DNA of 64,000 nucleotides from Candidatus Omnitrophota bacterium (GTDB taxonomy: Bacteria > Omnitrophota > Gorgyraeia > Velamenicoccales > JABMQK01): positions 390,032 to 454,031 of the forward strand of contig JAQTSV010000001.1 in NCBI GenBank assembly GCA_028711115.1, read 5' to 3'. Shown in pieces: positions 25,774 to 63,026 of the stretch (position 1 is its first letter; each line of letters begins with the position of its first letter). A model generated the notes under the pieces. It was not told the origin of the DNA and ran no database searches. It was given only the letters and a program-made list of their open reading frames with translations. Position numbers and translations under genes: made by a program.

Positions 25774-25935
25774 ATGTTTAATCTTAAAGATTTAGGCGAT
25801 ATGTCCAAAATAGCTTCGCAGGCAAAGGAATTGCAGCAGGCGCAGCAGAAGACAGAAGATAAGAAAATACAGCTTTTATCAAAGATTTCACAGCAGTTAG
25901 ACGAATTATTGACGGAACTAAGAAAGAATAAATAG
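25774..25935 (+). CDS. Unlisted 53-aa ORF (predicted helical/coiled-coil microprotein)
   Basis: ATG at 25774 lies 8 nt after AAGGAGAG. It encodes MFNLKDLGDMSKIASQAKELQQAQQKTEDKKIQLLSKISQQLDELLTELRKNK. It fills the only gap between mazG-like and DUF362 and falls below the ORF-track length cut-off. Confidence 0.4.
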   Translation: MFNLKDLGDMSKIASQAKELQQAQQKTEDKKIQLLSKISQQLDELLTELRKNK

Positions 25936-25949
25936 GATTTAAGGTTATT

Positions 25950-26996
25950 ATGCCAAGTGAAGTTTATTTTAAAAGCGTATCTGATGAGGCCTCAAGAAAC
26001 ATTGCTTTATCCAAAATATTGGAGCGCCTTCCGGTTTTTCAGAAAAATTCAATTGTTGCCATAAAAATTACTGTGGGTGATGAAAACAGCCGTCTGCATA
26101 TAAATCCGAAGTTGGTGGCAATGGTTGTAGAAAAAGTAAAAAGCCAGAGCGCAAAGCCCTTTATTTTCGACACCAATGTCATATATAAAGGAAAGCGTAT
26201 GAATGCGGTGGATCATTTAAACCTGGCTTATGAAAAAGGTTTTTCCCCGAAAGATATAGGCGCGCCGTTTATTATCGCCGACGGATTATCCGGGTTGGAC
26301 GGCAGGGAATTTCAAGTCGATTACAAACATATTAAGAAAGTAAAAATCCCTTCTTTTGTGGGGGTAGTGGATAATTTGATTGTGTTAAGCCACATCACCG
26401 GGCATATTTTATCAAGTTACGCCGGTGCTATTAAAAATGTGGGAATGGGGATGAGCTGCCGTTCGGGAAAACAAATCCAGCATTCTTCGGTGAAACCGAA
26501 GATAATTTCCAAAAAATGCGTTATGTGCGGGGCGTGCATTAACATCTGTCCGGTTAACGCAATTTCCCAGAAAGAAGAAAAGGCATTTATTGATTCCAAA
26601 GTTTGTGTAGGTTGCGGCGAATGCCTTTGCGCGTGTTTATACGACGCAGTGGCTGTAAATTGGAAGGAAGACATCGACGTTTTTTGCGAACGCATGGCTG
26701 AATACGCTTTCGTCATACTTTCCAAATTCAAAAACAAATTCTTTATAAATTTCGCTTTCGACATAACCAAGGAGTGCGATTGCATTGCTACGGCAAACGA
26801 ACCTAAAATCTGCCAGGATTTGGGAATTTTGGCCTCCGGAGATATTTTAGCCGTAGAAAAAGCCACCGTGGATTTATTAAATAAAAACGAAGACATTTTC
26901 TTAAAGGCGCAAAAAAGTAATTCGTATTTAGGGCAGCTAAATTATGCCGGAAAGATTTCCCTGGGCAATCTCGAATACGAATTAATTCAATTATGA
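25950..26996 (+). CDS. DUF362-domain Fe-S protein with inserted 2x[4Fe-4S] ferredoxin motifs
   Basis: CVMCGACINICP and CVGCGECLCAC cysteine motifs within a DUF362-like scaffold (VAIK...G, HSxxG-like segments). Confidence 0.75.
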   Translation: MPSEVYFKSVSDEASRNIALSKILERLPVFQKNSIVAIKITVGDENSRLHINPKLVAMVVEKVKSQSAKPFIFDTNVIYKGKRMNAVDHLNLAYEKGFSPKDIGAPFIIADGLSGLDGREFQVDYKHIKKVKIPSFVGVVDNLIVLSHITGHILSSYAGAIKNVGMGMSCRSGKQIQHSSVKPKIISKKCVMCGACINICPVNAISQKEEKAFIDSKVCVGCGECLCACLYDAVAVNWKEDIDVFCERMAEYAFVILSKFKNKFFINFAFDITKECDCIATANEPKICQDLGILASGDILAVEKATVDLLNKNEDIFLKAQKSNSYLGQLNYAGKISLGNLEYELIQL

Positions 26997-27691
26997 ATAC
27001 CTTCCTGAAGTTATTCGGATTAAATCCTCAGGATATAAAACACGATGTCATCATCACTCCTTTTATAAATTTGGAGTACTTTAAAATAAATAAAAAAAGT
27101 AAGATTAATAAAGGACTTCTGTTTGAGGTTTTGGCAGAGAGTGATTTTAGCGTAGTAAAGACCGGCGTAGGCAGTTCTTTTGTAGGTGATAGCGTCGTAT
27201 ATTTAAAAGAAACAGCCTGCAGGAGGATTTATTTTATCGGTTCCTGTGGTGTGGTTTCAAATTTCAATATCGGCGATTTGATTGTTGCGGACAAAATATT
27301 GGCCTGGGAGAGTTTCAGCGAAATTTTAGGGCACAGCCCTTCGCATTTCTTTATAAATGCGGAAAACGAACTTTCCAGGCGCTTCCTGGAATTAAATAAA
27401 GATATCCGCAAGGCAAATTTGGCTACTTTGGGTTCATTGAGCCTTCAGGAAAAAGTTTTGCAGTCACTAAAGAGGCAGGAAATCGACGTCGTGGATATGG
27501 AGGTTTCTGCATTTTCTTCCGCAGCCAAGTATTTTAAATTGTCCAGCCTGGCTTTGCTGTATTCTACCGATATTATTGAAGGCAAGCCATTTTCCAGAGA
27601 AGCAAGCCACCAGGAAAGAAAAGTTATAAAAGATTCCCGCCAGAGAGCAATCTCATTAATATGCGATTTTATCAGGAAACTAAACGCCTAG
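26993..27691 (+). CDS. Nucleoside phosphorylase-fold (PNP_UDP_1, DeoD/Udp/MTAN-like) protein, atypical
   Basis: KTGVGSS...IYFIGSCGVV aligns by eye to DeoD GHGMGIPS...IRVGSCGAV. VDMEVSAFSSAA aligns to VEMEAAG, and STDII to SDHI. ATGA overlap with the DUF362 gene. Confidence 0.65.
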   Translation: MNTFLKLFGLNPQDIKHDVIITPFINLEYFKINKKSKINKGLLFEVLAESDFSVVKTGVGSSFVGDSVVYLKETACRRIYFIGSCGVVSNFNIGDLIVADKILAWESFSEILGHSPSHFFINAENELSRRFLELNKDIRKANLATLGSLSLQEKVLQSLKRQEIDVVDMEVSAFSSAAKYFKLSSLALLYSTDIIEGKPFSREASHQERKVIKDSRQRAISLICDFIRKLNA

Positions 27692-29040
27692 AAGACGTTC
27701 AATCAGCGATAAAAGAGACGCGGCTGCACTTTGGCCCTAACAAACTGCAGGAGCTGATTCGTCTGGTTTACGAAGTTTCCCGAAGAGACAATATACCTCC
27801 CAGAATCCTCTTAAAGCAAGCCACAAAAAATACCAAGACGGAAGACACAAGGCAGGCCTTTGTCTATTTACGGGATTACTTTTTAAAGAAAAGATTCTCT
27901 ATCGCATATGGTAACAGTGGCAATTTTAAATGTTATCTTCCCAAGGTAAGCCTTGATAAAAAAGCGGTAGTCTCAAAGGAAAATTTGGGTAATTTTTATC
28001 CGGAAAACATATTTGTTGAGCAGGACGTCAAAGATTACAGTCTGACAAAGAGAATGCTTAAAAGTTTTTCTTCAGCCAGGCATATCGTTATAAATTACAT
28101 CGGCGATTATGTAAAATCACAAAAAAACAAAACTCCCATAATTAATTATAATTCAAGGGCCAAGAATCTTTTTCTAATAAAAGAGAGATTCGATTTCATA
28201 AAACCCTGTCCTTGTTCCAAAGGGGTTATAGGATGTGGTTATTGCATATTAAATTTAGGATTTGGCTGCATATATGAATGCAGTTATTGTTTTCTGCAGG
28301 GCTACACAAATGCCCACGGCATAATTTTACCTGTAAACATAGAGGATTTTTTAAAAAGATTGGGATGGTTCATCAATAAAAGTAAAGTCCCGATAAGAAT
28401 AGGTACAGGAGAATTCACTGATTCGCTGGCCTTGGATAATCTGACAGATTTTTCCAAAATATTGATAGATTTTTTCTCCCGGTCAGAAAACGCCAAATTG
28501 GAACTGAAGACAAAGAGCAATAACGTAAAAAATATTTTAAAGTTAAGGCATAACAAAAATACGGTTATTTCCTGGTCGCTGAATCCGCAGCCGATTATCG
28601 ACAGCGACGAATGGCAAGCCAGCAGCCTAAAACAAAGGCTTGATGCCGCCAAAGAATGTTGCCAGGCGGGCTATCCAGTGGGTTTTCATTTTGATCCAAT
28701 CATCTATTCTTCTAATTGGGAGAATTTATACAGGGAACTCGTAGATAATTTATTTAAGAAAATCGGTTTTCGTGATATCGCATGGATAAGTTTAGGTACT
28801 TTTCGTTTCGTGCCCAGGCTAAAGACAATCATTGAGCAGCGTTTTCCCAACACCAAGATTCTGAATGAGGAATTAATGCTGGGTTTTGACAAGAAATTAA
28901 GATACAACCCTGGATTAAGAACCGGTATATACAAGAAGATGTCTTCTTGGATAAAGAGTTATTCTGGCTCGGCCAGGGTATATTTATGTATGGAACCAAA
29001 AGAGATTTGGCAGGATGTGCTTGGCAGATGCAAGTTTTAA
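27661..29040 (+). CDS. Radical SAM enzyme of the spore-photoproduct-lyase (SplB-like) family with N-terminal extension
   Basis: GCIYECSYCFLQ (CxxxCxxC followed by YC(F/Y)LQ, as in SplB). Preceded by an extra CPC-x6-CGYC cluster. 31-nt overlap with the upstream gene. Confidence 0.7.
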   Translation: MRFYQETKRLEDVQSAIKETRLHFGPNKLQELIRLVYEVSRRDNIPPRILLKQATKNTKTEDTRQAFVYLRDYFLKKRFSIAYGNSGNFKCYLPKVSLDKKAVVSKENLGNFYPENIFVEQDVKDYSLTKRMLKSFSSARHIVINYIGDYVKSQKNKTPIINYNSRAKNLFLIKERFDFIKPCPCSKGVIGCGYCILNLGFGCIYECSYCFLQGYTNAHGIILPVNIEDFLKRLGWFINKSKVPIRIGTGEFTDSLALDNLTDFSKILIDFFSRSENAKLELKTKSNNVKNILKLRHNKNTVISWSLNPQPIIDSDEWQASSLKQRLDAAKECCQAGYPVGFHFDPIIYSSNWENLYRELVDNLFKKIGFRDIAWISLGTFRFVPRLKTIIEQRFPNTKILNEELMLGFDKKLRYNPGLRTGIYKKMSSWIKSYSGSARVYLCMEPKEIWQDVLGRCKF

Positions 29041-29144: not shown

Positions 29145-29172
29145 TTGACAAAAGTTACCTTTTTGTTATTAT
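29145..29172 (+). promoter_or_regulatory. Putative sigma70-type promoter (TTGACA-16-TATTAT)
   Basis: TTGACA at 29145-50 and TATTAT at 29167-72, in an AT-rich gap upstream of the lipoprotein gene. Confidence 0.35.
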
Positions 29173-29238
29173 GTTCTTTAAAAATACTGGTTTGTTTTTA
29201 GAAGACGGTAAGTTGAATTTTGAAAGGAGGTAGTTGTG

Positions 29239-29727
29239 ATGGGGAAAAACAGAGTCGGTTTATTAGTATTGGCAGTATTGTTTTTGTTTGCAGTGAGCGG
29301 ATGCGTCTCTTTATCTCAGAATAAGAGCAATAAAGATTTACAGGAAAAGGTGAATAAATTAGAAGAGCGCGTAGATAGACTTGAACAGGGCGAAGTTCAA
29401 TCCGGAACGCAGATTAATGCACAGCCAAAGCAAGGCATAACAGGAGGGGCTAGTTCCGCTGAACAGCCAACCGTCAAAAAAGAAGTTTCGGGAATTCCTG
29501 CCAACGAAGATATCCAGACGGCCTTAAAGAATGCCGGGCTTTATGACGGGGCAGTAGATGGTAAGATTGGCCCCAAGACACGCAGCGCAATTAAGGAATT
29601 TCAGAAACAGAATAACCTTGAGGCCGACGGAATAGTAGGCAAAAAAACCTGGGAGGTCTTGAGTAAATTCTATTATGCCACAGGAGAAAAGAAAGACGAC
29701 ACACAGCAGGTTAGCGAAGCTCAATAA
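29239..29727 (+). CDS. Lipoprotein with C-terminal peptidoglycan-binding (PG_binding_1) domain
   Basis: Lipobox AVSGC. C-terminal IQTALKNAGLYDGAVDGKIGPKTRSAIKEFQKQNNLEADGIVGKKTW. GGAGG RBS; an alternative GTG start lies at 29236. Confidence 0.7.
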   Translation: MGKNRVGLLVLAVLFLFAVSGCVSLSQNKSNKDLQEKVNKLEERVDRLEQGEVQSGTQINAQPKQGITGGASSAEQPTVKKEVSGIPANEDIQTALKNAGLYDGAVDGKIGPKTRSAIKEFQKQNNLEADGIVGKKTWEVLSKFYYATGEKKDDTQQVSEAQ

Positions 29728-29772: not shown

Positions 29773-30240
29773 ATGGACAGGCGCATCATAAGTTTTAAAT
29801 TATTAGTTGTGGTAGTGGTGGTTTTAGGTTTTGCTTTTGCTATCACCAGTTGCAATAAAAGAACACAGGAATCACCTTTTAAGACAGAGTTGCCGGATTA
29901 CAATACAACCATAGCCATAAGTTCTACCGATGAAGCAGCACAGGTTGCCGAACCCACCGTTTTAGAACCGACAGAAGCAGCCGCAGGTAAAATGAGTACC
30001 GAAGTAGATGCCAGCGGTTATGTGGCACCTACACCTCAGGAAATTCAGACTGCTTTGAAGAACGCCGGCTATTACAAAGGCGATGTTGATGGTAAGATTG
30101 GCCCGAAATCCAAACAGGCTATCATGGATTTTCAAAAGGATAATAATTTGGGCACAGATGGAAAAGTTGGCCCAAAGACTTGGTCCAAGTTAAAGGCCCA
30201 TCTTAATGTTCAGAGCTCTCAAGCTTCTGTGAAAGAGTAA
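29773..30240 (+). CDS. Lipoprotein with C-terminal peptidoglycan-binding domain (tandem paralogue)
   Basis: Lipobox AITSC. C-terminal IQTALKNAGYYKGDVDGKIGPKSKQAIMDFQKDNNLGTDGKVGPKTW. Confidence 0.7.
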   Translation: MDRRIISFKLLVVVVVVLGFAFAITSCNKRTQESPFKTELPDYNTTIAISSTDEAAQVAEPTVLEPTEAAAGKMSTEVDASGYVAPTPQEIQTALKNAGYYKGDVDGKIGPKSKQAIMDFQKDNNLGTDGKVGPKTWSKLKAHLNVQSSQASVKE

Positions 30241-30915: not shown

Positions 30916-33900
30916 ATGGCGCAAAAATTAGATTTTGACCACAAGAAAGTCAAGTATTCATTAAAAGACGATGGCAGATTCATCATCGAGAATTATAACT
31001 TTTCAAAGCCATTCTCCAGTTTTTTCCCCGGCATAGCCGGTTTATACGGAATACCCATGTGGGTATTTTATGTAAACAGAGGCCAGGGAATCGCCAGTTT
31101 CGGTATCAATTCCAAGGACCATCCGCTCTTGGAATTCTTTCCTGCAGATAAGACCTATGAAATGGTTTCCCGTCGGGGATTCCGGACATTTATAAAATTA
31201 AAAAAGAATAACAACATAACTTATTACGAACCTTTCCAGAACTCGTTAAGCAATTTGGTATTTCAGAGGAAGAATCGTATAGTTATAAATTTCTCTGAAC
31301 TGGGATTAGAAGAAGAAAACTTATCTTTAGGATTAAATGTCAGAGTAAACTATTTCACTATCCCTTCAGATAATTTTGCAGGGCTGGTGAGAATATTAAG
31401 TATAAAAAATACCTCAAGAAAGCCGCAGACGATTGAATTAATCGATGGGCTCCCCATAATTATTCCTTACGGTCTTAGCAATATGTTCTTAAAGAAACTC
31501 AGCCGCACAATTGAAGCCTGGATGGGCGTGGAGAATTTGGAAAACAATGCAGCGTTTTATCGCCTGAAAGTCGATCCCACCGACAGGCCAGAAATTATAC
31601 ACATAAAAAAAGGCAACTTCTATCTAAGTTTTTATGAGCAGGATGAAAAAGCTACTTTGCTAAAACCAATCGTAGACCCGGAGTGCGTATTCGGCAGAGT
31701 TACGGATTTGTCTTTCCCGTATTTATTCTTGAAAGAGAATAATTTCACCTATCCCAGACAGCAGATTGTCCAAAGTAGAACCCCGTCAGCGCTCTCTTTT
31801 ATAAAGACTCAGCTTAAGAAAGACGAAGAATTTGTATTGTATAGTGTTTGTGGCAATATGGATTATCTCGAGAAGTTAAACAGAAATATCAAACGCATCG
31901 CCAAAACCGACTATATAAAATCAAAACAAAAAGAAAATAACCAGATTGTCGCCTCAATCATGCAGAATGCCGCAACATTGTCTTCTTCCGATACTTTTAA
32001 TTTGTATGCCAAAGGTACGTTTTTAGATAATGTGATGCGCGGCGGCCTGCCCATAACTTTAGATAAGGAAAAAGGCGAAGTTGTCTACGTTTATTCGCGT
32101 AAGCACGGCGATTTAGAGAGGGATTACAATAAATTTGTCACGCAGCCGACTTATTTTTCGCAGGGTAACGGTAATTACAGGGATATAAATCAAAACCGCA
32201 GAAACGATATCTTTTTTAATCCCGAGTTAAAAGAAGCCAACATCGTCAGTTTTCTTAATTTTATTCAGTTGGACGGCTTTAATCCTTTAGTCATAAAAGG
32301 CATAAGCTATCATATAGAAGACAAAGATAAAATTTCCAAAATCTTAAGAGATTATTTAGACGATAACGACAAGAACCTTTTGAGTTCATTTTTATCGAAG
32401 CCGTTTTATATCGGCGAGCTTTTTATGTGGCTGGAGGAACACAACATAAACATCAAGGGCGACAAGAACGAATTCATAAAGAAGGTATTGTCTTTCAGCA
32501 TAAAACAGGAAGACGCAGAATACAAAGAAGGATTCTGGACCGACCATTGGACATATAATTTGGATTTAATAGAGAGCTATCTTGCTGTTTATCCCGAAAA
32601 ATTAAAATATATACTATTGGATAAGAAGGAATTTACTTTTTATGACGATTGCTGGACGGTAAATCCTCGCATTAAAAAATATGTTTTGTATGGTATAAAT
32701 CCGCGGCAGCTTAATGCAGTTGCGATTTCTAAAGAAAAACAGGTATTGATAGAAGGAAGAAAAGTCGAGCCGCATAAAGTGCGCATTGATTTTGGAAAAG
32801 GCGAGATATATAAGACTAATCTATTAGAGAAATTCATCTGCATAATCTTGAATAAACTGGCTTCGCTCGATCCGTTCGGCGTGGGCATAGAGATGGAAGC
32901 AAACAAACCCGACTGGTACGATGCCCTTAACGGCCTGCCTGCGCTTCTGGGTTCATCTATTTCGGAAACGATGGAACTTAAGAGGTTGATTCTATTTATA
33001 GAAAAGTCACTGAAGGAGTTAGGCCTAAAAGAAGATTCGAAAATCGAAATGGCAGAAGAGTTTTTTGAATTCTACAATGGTTTATCACAATTGTTAGAGG
33101 CCAAAGACGAAGATTCACAGGAAGGCAATTTTGTATTTTGGGATAAAAGTTATAGTTTAAAGGAAGAATACAGAGAAAAAACAATCTTAGGCTTAAGTGG
33201 AAAAGAAAAACAGATTAGCTTGTCAGATTTTATGCAATTCCTTAATCGCGCCCTGGCAAAGGTTGAAAGAGCAATATGCAAATCCTATAATCCCAAAGAT
33301 AAAACTTACAATACCTATTTTATAAATGAAATCGAGAAATTTGAGCGTATCGGCGAAGATAAAGAAGTCGTTTTTATAAAACCGCTCAAATTCAGGCAAA
33401 AGGCGCTGCCTCTATTTTTGGAAGGTTTTGTTCACGCCTTAAAGATAACAGATAAAATCACCGACAAGAAATCCATATATGAAGCAGTGAGAAGAAGTAA
33501 ACTTTACGATAATGCCTTGGGCATGTATAAAGTTAACGCTCCGCTGGAAGGCCAGCCGGAGGAAATCGGCAGAGCCAGAGTATTTACGCCGGGCTGGTTA
33601 GAAAACGAATCTGTTTGGCTGCATATGGAATATAAGTATTTATTGGAACTTTTAGAATCCGGTTTACATGATGAATTTTATAAAGATTTCTTTAGAATTC
33701 TGATTCCTTTCCAGGATCCCCAAAGATACGGACGCAGTATATTGGAAAATTCTTCTTTCTTGGTAAGCAGTGCTTTCCCCGACGCTAAATTGCACGGCAA
33801 TGGTTTTGTAGCGAGATTAAGCGGTTCCACATCAGAATTTTTACACATCTGGTTATTGATGAATGTGGGGGTTGCGCCGTTCTTTTTAGACGGCAAAGGA

Positions 33901-34227
33901 AAGTTATGTCTTAGATTTCAGCCAATTCTGCATAAAGACCTGTTTACGAAAAAAGAAATTAAATTCAATTACGCTACCAACGGCGATAAAGAAGTTTTGA
34001 TTGAGAAAAATTGTTATGCCTTTAATTTCTTGGGTAATACTTTGGTTGTTTACCATAATCCCAAAAGGTTAAATACTTATGGTAACAATGCTGCCAAGAT
34101 AAAGAAGATTATTTTAGAGGACAGGCAAAACAAAAAGCATGAAATCAATTCCGATTTGATATCCCCGGACTACTCCTATAATATCCGTTTGGCTAAATTC
34201 TTCCGCATAGACATATATCTTTCCTGA
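30916..34227 (+). CDS. Large (1103-aa) uncharacterised protein, possibly a distant GH94-like (alpha/alpha)6-barrel glycoside phosphorylase/hydrolase
   Basis: A single uninterrupted ORF, so coding status is secure. The functional hint is only the motif KPDWYDALNG (32911-32931), which resembles the xDWNDxxN motif I recall from GH94 phosphorylases, plus protein size and domain length. Confidence 0.45.
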   Translation: MAQKLDFDHKKVKYSLKDDGRFIIENYNFSKPFSSFFPGIAGLYGIPMWVFYVNRGQGIASFGINSKDHPLLEFFPADKTYEMVSRRGFRTFIKLKKNNNITYYEPFQNSLSNLVFQRKNRIVINFSELGLEEENLSLGLNVRVNYFTIPSDNFAGLVRILSIKNTSRKPQTIELIDGLPIIIPYGLSNMFLKKLSRTIEAWMGVENLENNAAFYRLKVDPTDRPEIIHIKKGNFYLSFYEQDEKATLLKPIVDPECVFGRVTDLSFPYLFLKENNFTYPRQQIVQSRTPSALSFIKTQLKKDEEFVLYSVCGNMDYLEKLNRNIKRIAKTDYIKSKQKENNQIVASIMQNAATLSSSDTFNLYAKGTFLDNVMRGGLPITLDKEKGEVVYVYSRKHGDLERDYNKFVTQPTYFSQGNGNYRDINQNRRNDIFFNPELKEANIVSFLNFIQLDGFNPLVIKGISYHIEDKDKISKILRDYLDDNDKNLLSSFLSKPFYIGELFMWLEEHNINIKGDKNEFIKKVLSFSIKQEDAEYKEGFWTDHWTYNLDLIESYLAVYPEKLKYILLDKKEFTFYDDCWTVNPRIKKYVLYGINPRQLNAVAISKEKQVLIEGRKVEPHKVRIDFGKGEIYKTNLLEKFICIILNKLASLDPFGVGIEMEANKPDWYDALNGLPALLGSSISETMELKRLILFIEKSLKELGLKEDSKIEMAEEFFEFYNGLSQLLEAKDEDSQEGNFVFWDKSYSLKEEYREKTILGLSGKEKQISLSDFMQFLNRALAKVERAICKSYNPKDKTYNTYFINEIEKFERIGEDKEVVFIKPLKFRQKALPLFLEGFVHALKITDKITDKKSIYEAVRRSKLYDNALGMYKVNAPLEGQPEEIGRARVFTPGWLENESVWLHMEYKYLLELLESGLHDEFYKDFFRILIPFQDPQRYGRSILENSSFLVSSAFPDAKLHGNGFVARLSGSTSEFLHIWLLMNVGVAPFFLDGKGKLCLRFQPILHKDLFTKKEIKFNYATNGDKEVLIEKNCYAFNFLGNTLVVYHNPKRLNTYGNNAAKIKKIILEDRQNKKHEINSDLISPDYSYNIRLAKFFRIDIYLS

Positions 34228-61122: not shown

Positions 61123-61921
61123 TAGATTTATGTTGATAGACACACATTGCCATCTGGATTTTCCTCAATTTGACAATGATAGAGAAACCGTCATCCAAAG
61201 AGCCAAAGACAATCAAATAGATTATTTAATAAATGTGGGCTCAAGCATTGAATCGTCATTTAGAGCAAGAGATTTAGCCGAGAAATTCGACAATATCTTT
61301 TTTAGCTTTGGCCTGCATCCTCATTACGCAGATAAATTTGATAAAGATACGTTGAATTCCACAAAGGATGCGGGAAAATTAGAAGATTTGCTCAAGAGTA
61401 AAAAATTAGTAGCTATCGGAGAAGTAGGATTAGACTATTATAGAAATTTATCAGAAAAAGAAAAACAAAAACAGGTATTCAGAGAGTTTATCGGCTTAGC
61501 CAAAAGACTGAATTTGCCGTTAGTTATACATTGCCGAGAAAGCCAATCCGATACATACGGCATATTGCATGATGAATTAAAAAATTTCAGCCGGATTGTA
61601 TTTCATTGTTTTTCCGGCCCAGAGGATTTCTTGGATAAATGTTTGGAACAAAACGCCATGTTTTCTTTTGCAGCAAACATAACTTATCCCAAGGCAGTTA
61701 AATTGAAAGAATTGGCAAAGAAAATACCTTGGGAAAAGATTATGCTGGAAACAGATTCTCCTTTTCTGGCTCCACAGAAATTCAGAGGCCAGCGTAACGA
61801 GCCATCGTATGTCCATTTTGTGGCTCAGGAATTAGCATTGATTAAGAATGTTACTCTTCAGGAAATTTCAGACATAACGACTCAAAACGCAAAAAGATTT
61901 TTTAAATTAGATGAAAACTAA
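61115..61921 (+). CDS. tatD: TatD-family metal-dependent hydrolase
   Basis: LIDTHCHLDF, GE.GLDY, IHCR and ETDSPFL motifs. Confidence 0.9.
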   Translation: MNDRFMLIDTHCHLDFPQFDNDRETVIQRAKDNQIDYLINVGSSIESSFRARDLAEKFDNIFFSFGLHPHYADKFDKDTLNSTKDAGKLEDLLKSKKLVAIGEVGLDYYRNLSEKEKQKQVFREFIGLAKRLNLPLVIHCRESQSDTYGILHDELKNFSRIVFHCFSGPEDFLDKCLEQNAMFSFAANITYPKAVKLKELAKKIPWEKIMLETDSPFLAPQKFRGQRNEPSYVHFVAQELALIKNVTLQEISDITTQNAKRFFKLDEN

Positions 61922-63026
61922 AGTTGCATTAGCAAGGTGCAGAGAATATGGTTCTGAAGAGGTAGATAGAGCCGTAGAGAAAGTATTGGATTTATTGGGC
62001 GGTATACAAAGTATTATTAAACCAAATTCCAGAGTTTTGATTAAGCCGAATCTTTTGACGGATAGTTTGCCTGAGGAATGTATTACTACGCATCCGCGCG
62101 TTATAGAAGCGATTATCCGTGCAGTTAAAAAGGTAACTCCCAATATTTATGTGGGCGATTCTCCGGGTTATATTGGTCAAAGGATAGAAGCGGATAAGGT
62201 TTATGAAGCCACAGGCATAAAAGAAGTTTGCCGCAGGCAAGGCGTAAAGCTTGTGTATTTCGATAAAGCGGTATTAAAGAAAAATATACCGCTTACAGAT
62301 TGGCTGGAGAGCTGTGATTGTATAATAAATGTGCCTAAATTTAAGACTCATGGTCTTACTACGCTTACAGGTGCAATTAAAAACTTATTTGGTTTAGTCT
62401 TGGGAGCGCACAAGGTCAAGCTGCACAAAGAACATCTTTACAGGGATGATTTCTCTAAGCAATTAGTGGATATATTTGGATTGGTAAAACCCGCATTGAC
62501 AATTGTAGACGCGGTTATCGCCATCGAAGGCGACGGCCCCGGCTCTTCAGGTACCAGAATAGACACGGAATTAATATTGGCCAGCCAGGACGCCGTAGCC
62601 GTAGATAGCATTCTGGCTACTGTTATGGGACTTTTTCCTCTGGATATTCCTACGACAAAAGAGGCGTTTTCCAGGAAATTAGGAGAGGCCAATATCGAAA
62701 ATATGGAAATACTAGGAGAGAATTTAGGTGAATTCATACACAGCGATTTCAAGCTTCCCAAGATGAGCCTTGTTTACTGTATGCCCAAGCCATTGTTTAA
62801 GCTTGCCAGAAAATTAACGTTGCATAAGATGCAGGTAATCAGAAAACAATGCCAGTCTTGCAGAAGATGTATTGAAATATGCCCGGTAGGTGCGGTAAGT
62901 TTTAAAAAAGACAAAGCCCTTATCAATTCTAAAGAATGTATTCTTTGTGCATGTTGTCAGGAAATTTGCCCTCACAAGGCAATAACAATTCGCAGAAGTC
63001 TGTTATTGAAAATACTGGGAGCCTAA
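61911..63026 (+). CDS. DUF362-domain protein with C-terminal 2x[4Fe-4S] ferredoxin domain
   Basis: V.IKPN, NVPK.K.H, and DA..A.EG.GP DUF362-like segments. CQSCRRCIEICP and CILCACCQEICP motifs. Paralogous in type to the gene at 25950..26996. Confidence 0.8.
   Translation: MKTKVALARCREYGSEEVDRAVEKVLDLLGGIQSIIKPNSRVLIKPNLLTDSLPEECITTHPRVIEAIIRAVKKVTPNIYVGDSPGYIGQRIEADKVYEATGIKEVCRRQGVKLVYFDKAVLKKNIPLTDWLESCDCIINVPKFKTHGLTTLTGAIKNLFGLVLGAHKVKLHKEHLYRDDFSKQLVDIFGLVKPALTIVDAVIAIEGDGPGSSGTRIDTELILASQDAVAVDSILATVMGLFPLDIPTTKEAFSRKLGEANIENMEILGENLGEFIHSDFKLPKMSLVYCMPKPLFKLARKLTLHKMQVIRKQCQSCRRCIEICPVGAVSFKKDKALINSKECILCACCQEICPHKAITIRRSLLLKILGA

Follow-up and report, generated by a model that had tools for sequence, protein, structure and literature searches.

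A locus in a Candidatus Omnitrophota MAG raises the question of why a DUF362-family Fe-S protein, a protein of the PNP fold and a radical SAM enzyme (rSAM) resembling spore photoproduct lyase (SPL) are encoded by three overlapping genes. We examined this trio in the 64,000-nucleotide stretch of DNA that contains it (the window) and in related loci from genomes and metagenomes. The best explanation, judged from sequences and gene context, is that the PNP-fold and SPL-fold proteins would form a dedicated two-enzyme unit in a small-molecule pathway rather than in DNA repair.

Overlapping reading frames

The genes, their overlaps and the downstream boundary are as follows.
25950-26996, + strand: DUF362-family Fe-S protein, 348 aa (PF04015 at 110.6 bits)
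26993-26996, + strand: ATGA start/stop overlap of the DUF362 and PNP genes (read from the sequence)
26993-27691, + strand: divergent NP-I (PNP/MTAN) fold protein, 232 aa (PF01048 at 50.4 bits)
27661-27691, + strand: 31-nt overlap of the PNP 3' end and the rSAM 5' end (sequence, N-terminal conservation)
27661-29040, + strand: SPL-fold radical SAM enzyme, 459 aa (PF20903 at 130.1 bits)
29145-29172, + strand: strong sigma-70-like promoter match (11/12 with TG extension; a consensus match only)

The three reading frames and both overlaps described in an earlier sequence-only reading are seen in the sequence, and its family assignments hold at the Pfam scores given above. The MazG-like gene (PF03819 at 25.8 bits) and the 53-aa ORF that it had noted upstream of the trio are also present. 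It had further taken the overlaps as a sign of co-translation and fixed stoichiometry. Overlaps are common in this genome, involving 17 of the 63 same-strand neighbour pairs in the window (longest-ORF calls), trpC/trpF and trpF/MazG among them, so overlaps alone do not show coupling and argue only weakly for fixed stoichiometry. Coupling is instead shown by the conservation of the overlaps in other genomes: in nearly every locus where they adjoin, the PNP and rSAM genes overlap by 8-40 nt, and the DUF362 and PNP genes share the same four ATGA nucleotides in 9 of the 13 trio loci. The upstream rSAM start, which creates the 31-nt overlap, is real since the N-terminal 111 residues are conserved, with M1, N27, K28, R34, E38 and R78 invariant among 56 homologues. 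Downstream of the rSAM stop, the promoter match appears to open a new transcription unit, which would place the 3' boundary of the module there.

A conserved PNP-rSAM pair in a shuffling gene set

The PNP gene lies directly 5' of the rSAM gene in 26 of 67 rSAM-centred genome loci from several phyla, and the rSAM gene directly 3' of the PNP gene in 44 of 73 PNP-centred metagenome loci. Across phyla this adjacency is kept at 40-47% rSAM identity with all surroundings rearranged, and in a Fibrobacterota MAG (L035) the two are joined in a single in-frame fusion of 649 aa. The conserved core of the module is thus the PNP-rSAM pair. The full DUF362-PNP-rSAM order, with DUF362 directly 5' of PNP, was found in 13 of the 67 rSAM-centred loci and in about half of the PNP-centred metagenome loci (35/69), so the three families do co-occur elsewhere.

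These observations bear on the view that three unrelated housekeeping genes have simply come to lie side by side in a compact, co-directional genome. The window itself lends it some colour: 64 of its 65 genes are on one strand at a coding density of 95%, overlaps are frequent as noted, and the trio lies inside an aroA-trp-MazG string without a promoter of its own; DUF362 orthologues, moreover, occur in unrelated contexts. Set against the survival of the adjacency across phyla, the natural fusion and the occurrence of every well-flanked PNP locus within one gene set (see below), incidental adjacency is largely refuted for the PNP-rSAM pair, and we consider it very improbable as an account of the locus.

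The trio had been proposed to be self-contained; it is instead part of a wider, shuffling gene set. That set also includes two more rSAMs, one of the B12 type and one short and PA0069/Rv2578c-like, along with a GT2 glycosyltransferase and an aldo-keto reductase (AKR). GT2 lies directly 5' or 3' of the rSAM gene in about 25 loci, the AKR adjoins in 7-8 Elusimicrobiota loci, a B12-type rSAM is close by in many loci, and in one locus (L100) PNP, rSAM, GT2 and AKR form a contiguous operon. In a large sister clade of rSAM loci, GT2 is present and the PNP gene is absent within 8 kb. Conversely, where PNP has no long rSAM nearby, it still stands beside a B12-rSAM/short-rSAM pair (L121, L123, L136, L152). 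The recurrent partners of the PNP-rSAM pair are sugar-chemistry enzymes, and the wider set is predicted to serve sugar or nucleoside chemistry. The predicted pathway of this pair occurs widely in Omnitrophota and Elusimicrobiota and in some phyla near them. The MazG-like gene and the 53-aa microORF accompany the trio only in its two closest relatives (L001, L002) and are not part of the module; the damaged-nucleotide theme that they had suggested finds no comparative support.

An SPL fold with altered substrate contacts

Four features of the rSAM were mapped.
27661-27993, + strand: family-specific N-terminal helical domain, residues 1-111 (the SPL profile starts at residue 112)
28207-28236, + strand: invariant Cys triad CPCSKGVIGC (C183, C185, C192; CPCx6C), 56/56 homologues
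28267-28299, + strand: radical SAM cluster motif CIYECSYCFLQ (C203, C207, C210), 56/56, aligned with C90/C94/C97 of Geobacillus thermodenitrificans (Gt) SPL
28402-28425, + strand: GTGEFTDS motif, with E251 and T253/D254 (residue mapping to SPL)

SPL is the best match of the rSAM in Pfam, NCBIfam and the PDB. In Foldseek, the AF2 model (pLDDT 91.0) matches SPL with E about 5e-24, a target TM of 0.83-0.84 and 24-26% identity; the next match stands at E about 1e-4, and MqnE is found only as a distant fold neighbour (E = 2e-3, TM about 0.38). The enzyme has the fold and CxxxCxxC motif of Gt SplB (TIGR04070; PDB 4FHC/4FHD), equivalents of its SAM-binding residues Ser142/Asp143 (here T253/D254), Lys174, Ser195 and Arg273, the Tyr96 equivalent and the β-hairpin after the barrel. 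C185 aligns with Ser76 of Gt SPL, the position of Cys77 in Clostridium acetobutylicum SPL, an alternative H-atom donor (SPL residue roles: PMC3467042).

The family match, the conserved SAM-binding residues and Tyr96 equivalent, the alignment of Cys185 with the clostridial donor and a UvrD-like helicase close by in some Endomicrobia loci would all suit a genuine spore-photoproduct-type DNA repair lyase with accessory proteins in a non-sporulating host. The substrate side of the active site speaks otherwise. The score against TIGR04070, the model for true SPL, is 149.5 bits, far below the cutoff of 400; Arg193, which contacts thymine O4 in SPL, is Ser or Ala in this family; Glu268 is deleted; and the H-donor Cys140 is replaced by an invariant Glu (E251, 56/56). 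The hairpin tip and C-terminal substrate contacts cannot be aligned, and new invariant polar residues (H343, D345 and others) occur in the barrel. Furthermore, the genes that recur beside it encode a nucleosidase, a glycosyltransferase and an aldo-keto reductase and no repair proteins, and the hosts are Omnitrophota and Elusimicrobiota, which are not endospore formers. The rSAM was accordingly rejected as a true SPL on the score, the lost thymine contacts and the Cys140 replacement, and falls outside characterised families; like the sequence-only reading, which had doubted it, we judge SPL-type repair unlikely in the extreme.

Other features set the rSAM apart from SplB: its occurrence in non-sporulating phyla, its genetic coupling to a nucleosidase-fold protein, the 111-residue N-terminal domain (helices predicted by AF2 at residues 5-19, 26-43, 47-55, 63-78 and 80-86), the CPCx6C triad and C443. 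The triad and C443 are a candidate H-donor or auxiliary metal/cluster site.

A probable non-phosphorolytic nucleosidase

Three active-site motifs are retained in the PNP-fold protein.
27239-27250, + strand: GSCG, with the Ser90 equivalent in this loop
27494-27502, + strand: DME, Met180/Glu181 ribose contact
27566-27571, + strand: TD, catalytic Asp204 equivalent

The AF2 model (pLDDT 90.5) gives Foldseek TM values of about 0.7 with MTAP, PNP and MTAN structures at 12-19% identity. With DeoD-type PNP, MTAP and MTAN the protein shares the NP-I fold, the GSCG loop and the equivalents of Met180/Glu181 and Asp204; within the family the Glu181 equivalent is kept in 25/25 sequences, that of Asp204 in 24/25, and those of Met180 and Ser90 are also kept. 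The protein lacks a phosphate clamp: the phosphate-binding Arg87 is replaced by a hydrophobic residue (Leu/Phe/Val) and the GDPxR motif is absent. Retention of the ribose-binding Glu and catalytic Asp in this setting points to a probable non-phosphorolytic nucleosidase. That it is no ordinary DeoD, MtnP or MTAN protein is also evident from the NCBIfam equivalogs, all far under cutoff (best 33.4 against 161). The family, with 190 representatives at E <= 1e-30 and without an equivalog match, is distinct. In each of the 26 PNP-family loci flanked by 3 kb or more on each side, one or more partners from the gene set were present. The family is dedicated to the rSAM gene set and, in contrast to DeoD, MTAP and MTAN, does not lie in nucleoside catabolism or methionine salvage operons.

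A facultative DUF362 partner

Two regions of the DUF362 protein stand out.
26496-26657, + strand: 2x[4Fe-4S] ferredoxin-type insert, residues 183-236 (Fer4/Fer4_7 matches)
26766-26786, + strand: TKECDCI motif, near-invariant C276-D-C278 (25-sequence alignment)

PF04015 matches over the full length of the protein. The insert carries two Cys motifs, CVMCGACINICP and CVGCGECLCAC, matches ferredoxins in the PDB and is common to many DUF362 proteins. C276-D-C278, outside the insert, is a candidate metal or cluster site. The alignment also reveals an invariant core (K39, D74, T75, D88, D111, D117, H152, K162, N163, H178), and a ferredoxin-less paralogue keeps the conserved His/Asp/Lys core as well. 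With its own invariant His/Asp/Lys/Cys core, the protein looks like an enzyme and more than a reductant. Only some orthologues are operonic with the PNP-rSAM pair; others, at 55-57% identity, are solitary and lie in unrelated surroundings. As a partner of the PNP-rSAM core, DUF362 is facultative and restricted to certain lineages, and the unit that is conserved is the pair, found across several phyla and once fused. The Pfam family has no characterised member and was used merely as an outgroup in PMC11770544. PF04015 belongs to Pfam clan CL0471 together with the LarA N-terminal domain DUF2088.

A proposed adenosylation with later loss of adenine

In hopanoid biosynthesis, HpnH adds a 5'-dA radical, and a residue of the active site gives hydrogen to the product radical; adenine is then removed by the PNP homologue HpnG, and HpnI (a glycosyltransferase) and HpnJ (an rSAM) act next; adenosylation is also carried out by a second rSAM, MqnE (PMC13459092). 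By analogy, and with a probability of roughly one in three, we propose that the rSAM adenosylates its substrate by radical chemistry and that the PNP-fold enzyme then removes the adenine. The rSAM would reductively cleave SAM, and its 5'-deoxyadenosyl radical would add to an unsaturated substrate carbon; an active-site hydrogen donor, possibly the invariant Cys185 at the clostridial donor position, would quench the product radical; and the PNP-fold enzyme would remove adenine, with a ribosyl (C5 sugar) group left attached. The AKR and GT2 that adjoin the pair in other genomes would reduce and glycosylate this group, and DUF362 with its 2x[4Fe-4S] insert, where present, may be a redox partner or reductase. 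The scheme would follow the order HpnH, HpnG, (reduction), HpnI with unrelated rSAM and nucleosidase lineages.

The two systems are alike in the genetic pairing of an rSAM with a dedicated PNP_UDP_1-fold protein, in the GT2 and B12-type rSAM that accompany the pair in related loci (compare HpnI, a GT2, and HpnJ), and in the reductase step that the hopanoid pathway requires after adenine removal, an AKR being present in the gene set here. They differ in sequence family: the rSAM here is SPL-fold, and neither protein matches the HpnH, HpnG, MqnE or MqnB models of NCBIfam (E <= 0.01 for HpnH/HpnG). The hosts are Omnitrophota and Elusimicrobiota, the neighbourhood of the cluster showed no hopene cyclase, other hopanoid gene or candidate gene for alkene production, and adenosylation is a step that we infer here. 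To our knowledge, the SPL fold supports H-abstraction and C-C fragmentation only, not adenosylation, which counts against our proposal. In the GT2 clade without PNP within 8 kb, obligatory deadenylation would require a PNP encoded elsewhere.

The main rival, which we hold possible but doubtful, is close to the earlier proposal of reductant, catalyst and by-product clearance: DUF362 would supply low-potential electrons, the rSAM would abstract hydrogen and release 5'-deoxyadenosine (5'-dAdo), and the PNP-fold nucleosidase would clear 5'-dAdo, and SAH from the neighbouring B12-rSAM, at source. Inhibition of rSAM enzymes by 5'-dAdo is known (PMC8102628, PMC6079011). Purine-nucleoside catalytic residues without a phosphate clamp are also what hydrolytic MTANs have, and the nucleosidase is tightly coupled to, and once fused with, an rSAM. 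The loss of Cys140, and of Tyr98 (Phe in half of the family, the window protein included), suggests consumption of SAM without its regeneration. Up to three rSAM enzymes in the wider cluster would generate much 5'-dAdo and SAH, and PNP beside the B12-rSAM/short-rSAM pair without the long rSAM fits general clean-up; all of the gene context suits clearance in an rSAM-rich cluster equally well. However, known dedicated rSAM/PNP-fold pairs (HpnH/HpnG; MqnE with MqnB or MTAN) act on adenosylated products, and we know of no by-product nucleosidase fused or translationally coupled to one rSAM. An adjacent PNP is missing in half or more of the rSAM loci; DUF362, absent from most loci, found alone elsewhere and enzyme-like in its core, is not a dedicated reductant; and the AKR and GT2 are left without explanation. 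A mechanism of reductant, catalyst and clearance may apply, and we do not prefer it to one in which the nucleosidase acts within a pathway.

The pair might instead serve nucleoside salvage, a reading we regard as unlikely. In queuosine salvage in Clostridioides difficile, a queuosine hydrolase (QueK) and a radical SAM queuine lyase (QueL) are co-encoded and share one metabolite derived from a nucleoside, a real instance of a nucleosidase paired with an rSAM lyase (PMC11130926, PMC11570991). By this analogy, the PNP-fold protein would free a modified base or sugar from a modified nucleoside, and the rSAM would perform SPL-like radical C-C or C-N fragmentation of this nucleoside or base. With the SPL fold, SAM site, β-hairpin and an invariant equivalent of Arg273 (lesion-phosphate and SAM contact) retained, the active site could still accept a nucleoside or nucleotide; Cys185 at the SPL donor position suits fragmentation, and salvage is plausible in these small-genome lineages. 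Against this, QueK belongs to the IUNH family of hydrolases, without the NP-I fold of PNP_UDP_1, and QueL is catalogued solely under the generic rSAM core domain IPR006638. The Que cluster holds an ECF transporter component, whereas the window and eight representative loci contain no module-associated transporter, riboswitch or tRNA-modification gene. Biosynthesis is a better fit than salvage for the GT2, AKR and B12-rSAM partners.

Organization of the module

The three genes lie on the plus strand at 25950-29040. Pfam agrees with the families proposed for them in the sequence-only reading, namely a DUF362 protein with Fe-S motifs, a protein of the purine nucleoside phosphorylase (PNP) fold, and a radical SAM enzyme (rSAM) resembling spore photoproduct lyase (SPL).

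Genes of the trio (coordinates, strand, product, Pfam match)
25950-26996 (+): DUF362-ferredoxin ORF, 348 aa; PF04015, 110.6 bits
26993-27691 (+): PNP-fold ORF, 232 aa; PNP_UDP_1, 50.4 bits
27661-29040 (+): rSAM ORF, 459 aa; SPL family PF20903, 130.1 bits (gathering score 27)

The three proteins are 100% identical to 'hypothetical' or DUF362 entries of a Candidatus Omnitrophica MAG. The overlaps described earlier (ATGA between the DUF362 and PNP genes; 31 nt between the PNP and rSAM genes) are exactly as stated, and the more upstream rSAM start, from which the longer overlap results, is supported by the conservation of the N-terminal 111 residues among 56 homologues. By themselves these overlaps argue little, since overlaps are commonplace in the window (17 of 63 same-strand neighbour pairs), where the plus strand holds 64 of the 65 ORF-called genes at a coding density of 95% and a GC content of 39.9%. 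The weight of the coupling argument rests on comparative data, not on the overlaps.

Upstream of the trio runs the gene string aroA-trpG-trpD-trpC-trpF-MazG-small ORF. The flanking genes in the window are housekeeping genes only and give no hint of a substrate. No Rfam family, including tRNA, rRNA and riboswitch families, reached its gathering score across the 64-kb window, and no ligand-revealing riboswitch was found in the window or in eight homologous loci, where the Rfam matches were to tRNA and tmRNA only. No convincing promoter belonging to the trio was found in the region; the sole strong promoter-like site, and the strongest in the region, lies at 29145-29172, past the rSAM stop codon.

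The PNP-fold and rSAM genes are coupled across genomes

This uncharacterised module is real and conserved, and the PNP-fold protein and the rSAM enzyme form a functional unit within it. In an rSAM-centred scan with one genome per species, at least 584 relatives were found and 80 loci were kept, mostly from Omnitrophota and Elusimicrobiota/Endomicrobia, with single rSAM-bearing MAGs labelled Chlamydiota, Auribacterota, Fibrobacterota, Erginobacter and Clostridia. Partner genes were detected with iteratively built HMMs and counted in the 67 loci with sufficient upstream sequence. The PNP-fold gene lies immediately 5' of the rSAM gene, on the same strand, in 26/67 loci and within 8 kb in 30/67. 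A DUF362 gene is present in 13/67, always in the order DUF362-PNP-rSAM, so the co-occurrence suspected from one genome holds in others. The DUF362 and PNP genes overlap by 4 nt in 9 of these 13 trio loci, and where the PNP and rSAM genes adjoin they nearly always overlap, by 8-40 nt.

An exhaustive profile search defined a distinct PNP family of 190 representatives (50%-identity clusters; E <= 1e-30), and 80 metagenome loci were retrieved with this family. The long rSAM gene is immediately 3' of the PNP gene in 44/73 of these PNP-centred metagenome loci, and DUF362 is immediately 5' in 35/69. Every PNP locus having at least 3 kb on each side (26/26) contains at least one member of the recurrent gene set described below, which makes the PNP-fold protein a dedicated part of this set instead of a housekeeping nucleosidase; with the flank requirement relaxed to at least 1.5 kb, the count is 34/36.

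At one locus, L035:7353-9302 (from a MAG labelled Fibrobacterota), a single in-frame 649-aa ORF encodes a PNP domain that retains the DME and TD motifs, followed by the N-terminal extension and the rSAM. It is the sole fusion among 160 loci and among the top 150 PNP-family representatives. Fusions are rare, since the best-scoring 150 of the 190 representatives are all 184-256 aa; none occurs in the 73 metagenome loci, and we rejected fusion as a common architecture. At two loci flanked by DUF362 and rSAM genes (L140:4001-4348 and L141:226-573), the PNP-family match spans only the first half of the profile, which may reflect a frameshift, a pseudogene or an assembly error.

A radical SAM enzyme with a predicted SPL fold, distinct from SPL

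The AlphaFold model of the rSAM enzyme (pLDDT 91.0) has an SPL-like partial TIM barrel and an N-terminal α/β domain, placing the protein in the SPL-fold superfamily. SPL was the only close PDB match to the model in a Foldseek search (4FHC-4FHG; E ~5e-24, target TM 0.83-0.84, 24-26% identity), the next PDB match having E ~1e-4. The SPL-like signature noticed in a host with no sign of sporulation is borne out at the level of fold; the score against the SPL equivalog TIGR04070 is 149.5 bits (cutoff 400) and that against the 'SPL family' model 65.6 bits (cutoff 437). Its hosts are not endospore-forming Firmicutes but MAGs assigned to Omnitrophota, Elusimicrobiota, Chlamydiota, Auribacterota and Fibrobacterota. 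To our knowledge, no function has been assigned to SPL homologues outside spore formers.

We mapped the residues of G. thermodenitrificans (Gt) SPL with experimentally defined roles (PMC3467042) onto 56 family sequences, with numbering validated on C90/C94/C97.

Gt SPL residues (role) and their equivalents in the window protein, with conservation among 56 family sequences
C90, C94, C97 (cluster cysteines): C203, C207, C210; 56/56
Ser142/Asp143 (SAM contacts): T/S253, D254; D254 56/56, position 253 S/T
Lys174, Ser195, Arg273 (SAM contacts): K285, S306, R382; 56/56
Tyr96 (SAM backbone / relay): Y209; 55/56
Cys140 (H-atom donor): E251; Glu 56/56
Tyr98 (radical relay): F211; family F28/Y28
Arg193 (thymine O4 contact): S304; S50/A6
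Glu268 (thymine O4 contact): deleted; sits in an SPL-specific insertion missing here
Ser76, Cys77 in clostridial SPL (alternative H donor): C185; 56/56

The H-donor cysteine is Cys140 in Bacillus/Geobacillus SPL and, alternatively, Cys77 in Clostridium (PMC3467042). C185 falls within an invariant CPCx6C triad (C183, C185, C192), which may be an H-donor site or, instead, a metal or auxiliary cluster site. C443 is also invariant and C333 is kept in 54/56 sequences. Further new invariant residues include H343, D345, E281, E317, E392, R394, D410, K412, R414 and Y415, the last four in a β-hairpin at 405-415 of the model. The DNA-flipping β-hairpin of SPL carries Arg304/Tyr305 and Lys309; pairwise and profile alignments of the rSAM enzyme with SPL end at about native residue 291-296, short of the SPL hairpin and C-terminus. 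A helical N-terminal domain (residues 1-111) is family-specific and found in all clades.

We rejected a true SPL on the basis of the equivalog score, the missing thymine contacts and the genes found alongside, and the PNP-rSAM pair is not an SPL-type DNA repair system. Anti-phage defence was likewise rejected, none of four proteins matching a PADLOC defence-system model at E <= 0.01. The family defines one large, coherent SPL-fold subfamily in at least 584 species-level genomes, with testable features: an invariant Glu where SPL has its donor Cys, the added Cys triad and N-terminal domain, and a nucleosidase partner that is dedicated to the enzyme and sometimes fused to it.

A divergent NP-I protein predicted to lack the phosphate clamp

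The single PNP sequence found nothing in the PDB; the family profile matched DeoD-type PNPs best (E = 1.5e-14), and the model (pLDDT 90.5) superposes on MTAP, PNP and MTAN at TM ~0.7 with 12-19% identity. We aligned the family to E. coli DeoD, using a reference sequence that matches the literature numbering at 11 checked residues. The equivalents of the ribose-binding residues Glu181 (E170, 25/25) and Met180 (M169), of the catalytic Asp204 (D193, 24/25) and of Ser90 (S84, 22/25) are conserved, and at the position of the phosphate-binding Arg87 the family has a hydrophobic residue (L15/F7/V3; Phe81 in the window protein). No GDPxR motif could be aligned to the family, and the N-terminal regions that contain DeoD Arg24 (phosphate-binding) and Arg43 and the water-activating Glu12 of E. 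coli MTAN did not align with the family profile. From these alignments the protein appears to be a divergent NP-I enzyme without a phosphate clamp. The pattern fits a catalytic core that binds purine-type nucleosides, which would belong to a hydrolase or to an enzyme using a non-canonical nucleophile.

The proposed DeoD/Udp/MTAN fold stands, but an ordinary DeoD, MtnP or MTAN orthologue was rejected on the loss of Arg87, on a context exclusive to the gene set, and on scores far under the cutoffs: 22.2 bits against the DeoD equivalog TIGR00107 (cutoff 232), and 33.4 and 18.3 bits against the MTAN models PRK07164 (161) and PRK05584 (169). The hopanoid-associated phosphorylase and futalosine hydrolase models (HpnG/MqnB) were absent from the NCBIfam matches at E <= 0.01.

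The DUF362 protein is a facultative partner

The DUF362 match is full length (profile positions 1-200 of 200), with an insert at residues 183-236 containing two ferredoxin-type CxxCxxCxxxC motifs (Fer4/Fer4_7 at 184-233). Invariant His, Asp and Lys residues and a near-invariant CDC motif all lie outside this insert, and the His, Asp and Lys residues are common even to a paralogue lacking the ferredoxin motifs. This conservation outside the insert suggests that the protein is no simple electron carrier but an Fe-S-dependent enzyme or a protein that binds a cofactor, although a role as reductant for the rSAM enzyme is possible. In the literature examined there is no characterised DUF362 member, and membership of a Pfam clan with the LarA N-terminal domain is the sole link. 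Orthologues at 55-57% identity are solitary in 3/3 sampled contexts, where neither PNP nor rSAM genes occur, and we rejected DUF362 as an obligate partner.

A second DUF362-ferredoxin paralogue is encoded in the window at 61911-63026 (+) (PF04015, 171 bits), with a C-terminal ferredoxin dicluster (~307-357) in place of the mid-domain insert of the trio protein. Two DUF362 genes separated by 1.5 kb also occur at locus L081 (260-1303 (-) and 2856-3911 (+)), on a contig labelled Nitrospirae; one of them has no ferredoxin insert, and a BrnT-toxin-like gene sits between the two.

The trio belongs to a larger gene set that shuffles

Four further genes recur beside the module, whose partners are enzymes of sugar or nucleoside chemistry.

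Recurrent neighbours (cluster, product, best family evidence)
c2: B12-binding-domain rSAM; generic class B
short rSAM: 280-330 aa; PA0069 / Rv2578c / 'mobile pair B' type
c1: GT2 glycosyltransferase; generic GT2
c12: aldo-keto reductase (AKR); PF00248, 259 bits

None of c1, c2 and the short rSAM matched an NCBIfam model at equivalog cutoff, and none of the four genes occurs in the 64-kb window itself. They combine with the trio genes in several arrangements.

Gene orders observed at homologous loci
B12-short rSAM-DUF362-PNP-rSAM: e.g. L095, L102, L107, L113, L132, L138, L150
B12-short rSAM-GT2-rSAM: L061, L071, L077
PNP-rSAM-GT2: L098, L099
PNP-rSAM-GT2-AKR: L100
AKR-rSAM: Elusimicrobium-type loci
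B12-short rSAM-PNP, long rSAM absent nearby: L121, L123, L136, L152

The short rSAM gene almost always has a B12-binding-domain rSAM gene directly 5' of it (L006, L016, L019, L061 and many of L085-L164; short rSAM at L006:733-1602, L016:5385-6230, L019:5118-5963 and L061:4743-5597). The two genes move with the module as a pair and lack an assigned function.

Partners follow clades on the rSAM tree. In one Omnitrophota clade PNP is present, mostly together with DUF362; its sister clade has GT2 directly upstream of rSAM and no PNP within 8 kb; and the Elusimicrobiota clades have PNP or AKR. At five loci of the GT2 clade (L043, L053, L057, L058, L071), a DAGK_prokar/DgkA-type (diacylglycerol/undecaprenol) kinase gene lies 3' of rSAM on the same strand (L071:9328-9714, for example), and past it, on the other strand, are SpoIID-like, lpxI, lpxA and fabZ-lpxC-like genes. 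This neighbourhood may hint at a membrane-lipid context or be mere synteny.

Candidate functions

We rank first radical adenosylation by the rSAM enzyme followed by deadenylation by the PNP-fold enzyme, with a probability of about 0.33; all the chemical steps are ones that we infer. Following the HpnH model, the rSAM enzyme would add the 5'-dA radical to its substrate, with the invariant Cys at the H-donor position a candidate H source for the product radical. The PNP-fold enzyme would then remove adenine from the adenosylated product, and the AKR, GT2 and B12-type rSAM would complete the set. The ranking reflects this cysteine, the mirrored gene set, and the fact that the dedicated rSAM/PNP-fold enzyme pairings on record are of the adenosylation/deadenylation type (PMC13459092). 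HpnH adds the 5'-dA radical to diploptene, and an active-site residue then donates H to the product radical; adenine is removed by HpnG, after which HpnI (a glycosyltransferase) and HpnJ (an rSAM) act, and MqnE is analogous (PMC13459092). The presence of rSAM, PNP-fold, GT2, B12-type rSAM and AKR genes resembles the Hpn pathway in logic only, as the protein families here are unrelated to those of the Hpn and Mqn systems (NCBIfam). The rSAM enzyme had no NCBIfam match to the HpnH or MqnE family models, and MqnE is a remote fold match to its model (E = 2e-3, TM ~0.38).

Action on an adenosylated product would make the module a convergent example of radical adenosylation, yielding ribose-derived metabolites or lipids hitherto unknown in poorly known candidate phyla. 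A more specific proposal, which we regard as rather unlikely, is that an SPL-fold rSAM convergently turned adenosylating and, with a private nucleosidase, AKR and GT2, builds a ribose-derived C5 polyol or glycosyl appendage. The DgkA and lpx genes close by in one clade make a membrane lipid or polyprenol a possible acceptor. If so, Omnitrophota and Elusimicrobiota would contain 'extended' lipids or metabolites of a class not yet recognised. ArsS represents a third rSAM lineage with adenosylating activity. MqnE and HpnH represent two other such lineages (PMC13459092).

The sequence-only reading cast DUF362 as reductant, the rSAM enzyme as catalyst and the PNP-fold protein as a nucleosidase removing 5'-deoxyadenosine. 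Such clearance would suit a cluster rich in rSAM enzymes and a phosphate site lost as in MTAN, but leaves the AKR and GT2, and a facultative, enzyme-like DUF362, unexplained; we place it second, as an improbable though serious candidate. It would provide a physically coupled, dedicated by-product-removal partner for an rSAM enzyme, of which we know no earlier case. Third comes a design resembling QueK/QueL, a nucleoside lyase or salvage pathway, which seems doubtful. Queuine salvage pairs an IUNH-family hydrolase with a QueL-type rSAM beside a Q-precursor transporter, whereas the nucleosidase here has the NP-I fold and no transporter is adjacent. QueL is reportedly linked to SPL; homology to QueL (Q186P0), which the literature found catalogues under IPR006638 only, was dropped and kept as an analogy. 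The remaining probability falls to something further, for instance sulfur chemistry or another reaction at an auxiliary cluster on the Cys triad.

Whether the nucleosidase acts on an adenosylated product or on 5'-deoxyadenosine, the module offers an experimental handle on DUF362. It is new at the subfamily level only and not a categorically new system, since SPL-fold rSAM enzymes, NP-I nucleosidases and the rSAM-plus-nucleosidase design are already known. For radical SAM enzymology, as for the biology of Omnitrophota and Elusimicrobiota, it offers a good lead for experiments; many uncharacterised rSAM clusters exist, however.

Other genes near the module

The MazG gene and the small ORF upstream had been read as partners in a damaged-nucleotide theme. 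They lie beside the trio only in L001 and L002, the two closest relatives, and we rejected them as module members. The small ORF (25774-25935 (+), 53 aa) encodes a conserved protein with no family match and no link to the module; its counterparts at the same position in L001 and L002 are 82% and 65% identical, and relatives at 45-50% identity occur elsewhere, on the opposite strand, in L029 and L049.

After the promoter-like site, tandem paralogous lipoprotein-like genes with C-terminal PG_binding_1 domains (~65% identical over the domain) occupy 29236-29727 (+) and 29773-30240 (+). Further downstream, a 1103-aa ORF at 30916-34227 (+) has no Pfam match at E <= 1e-5 and is weakly similar (tblastn, 26-27% identity) to the 828-aa protein of neighbour cluster c16, which recurs near rSAM in other Omnitrophota loci (e.g. 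L028:10748-13234).
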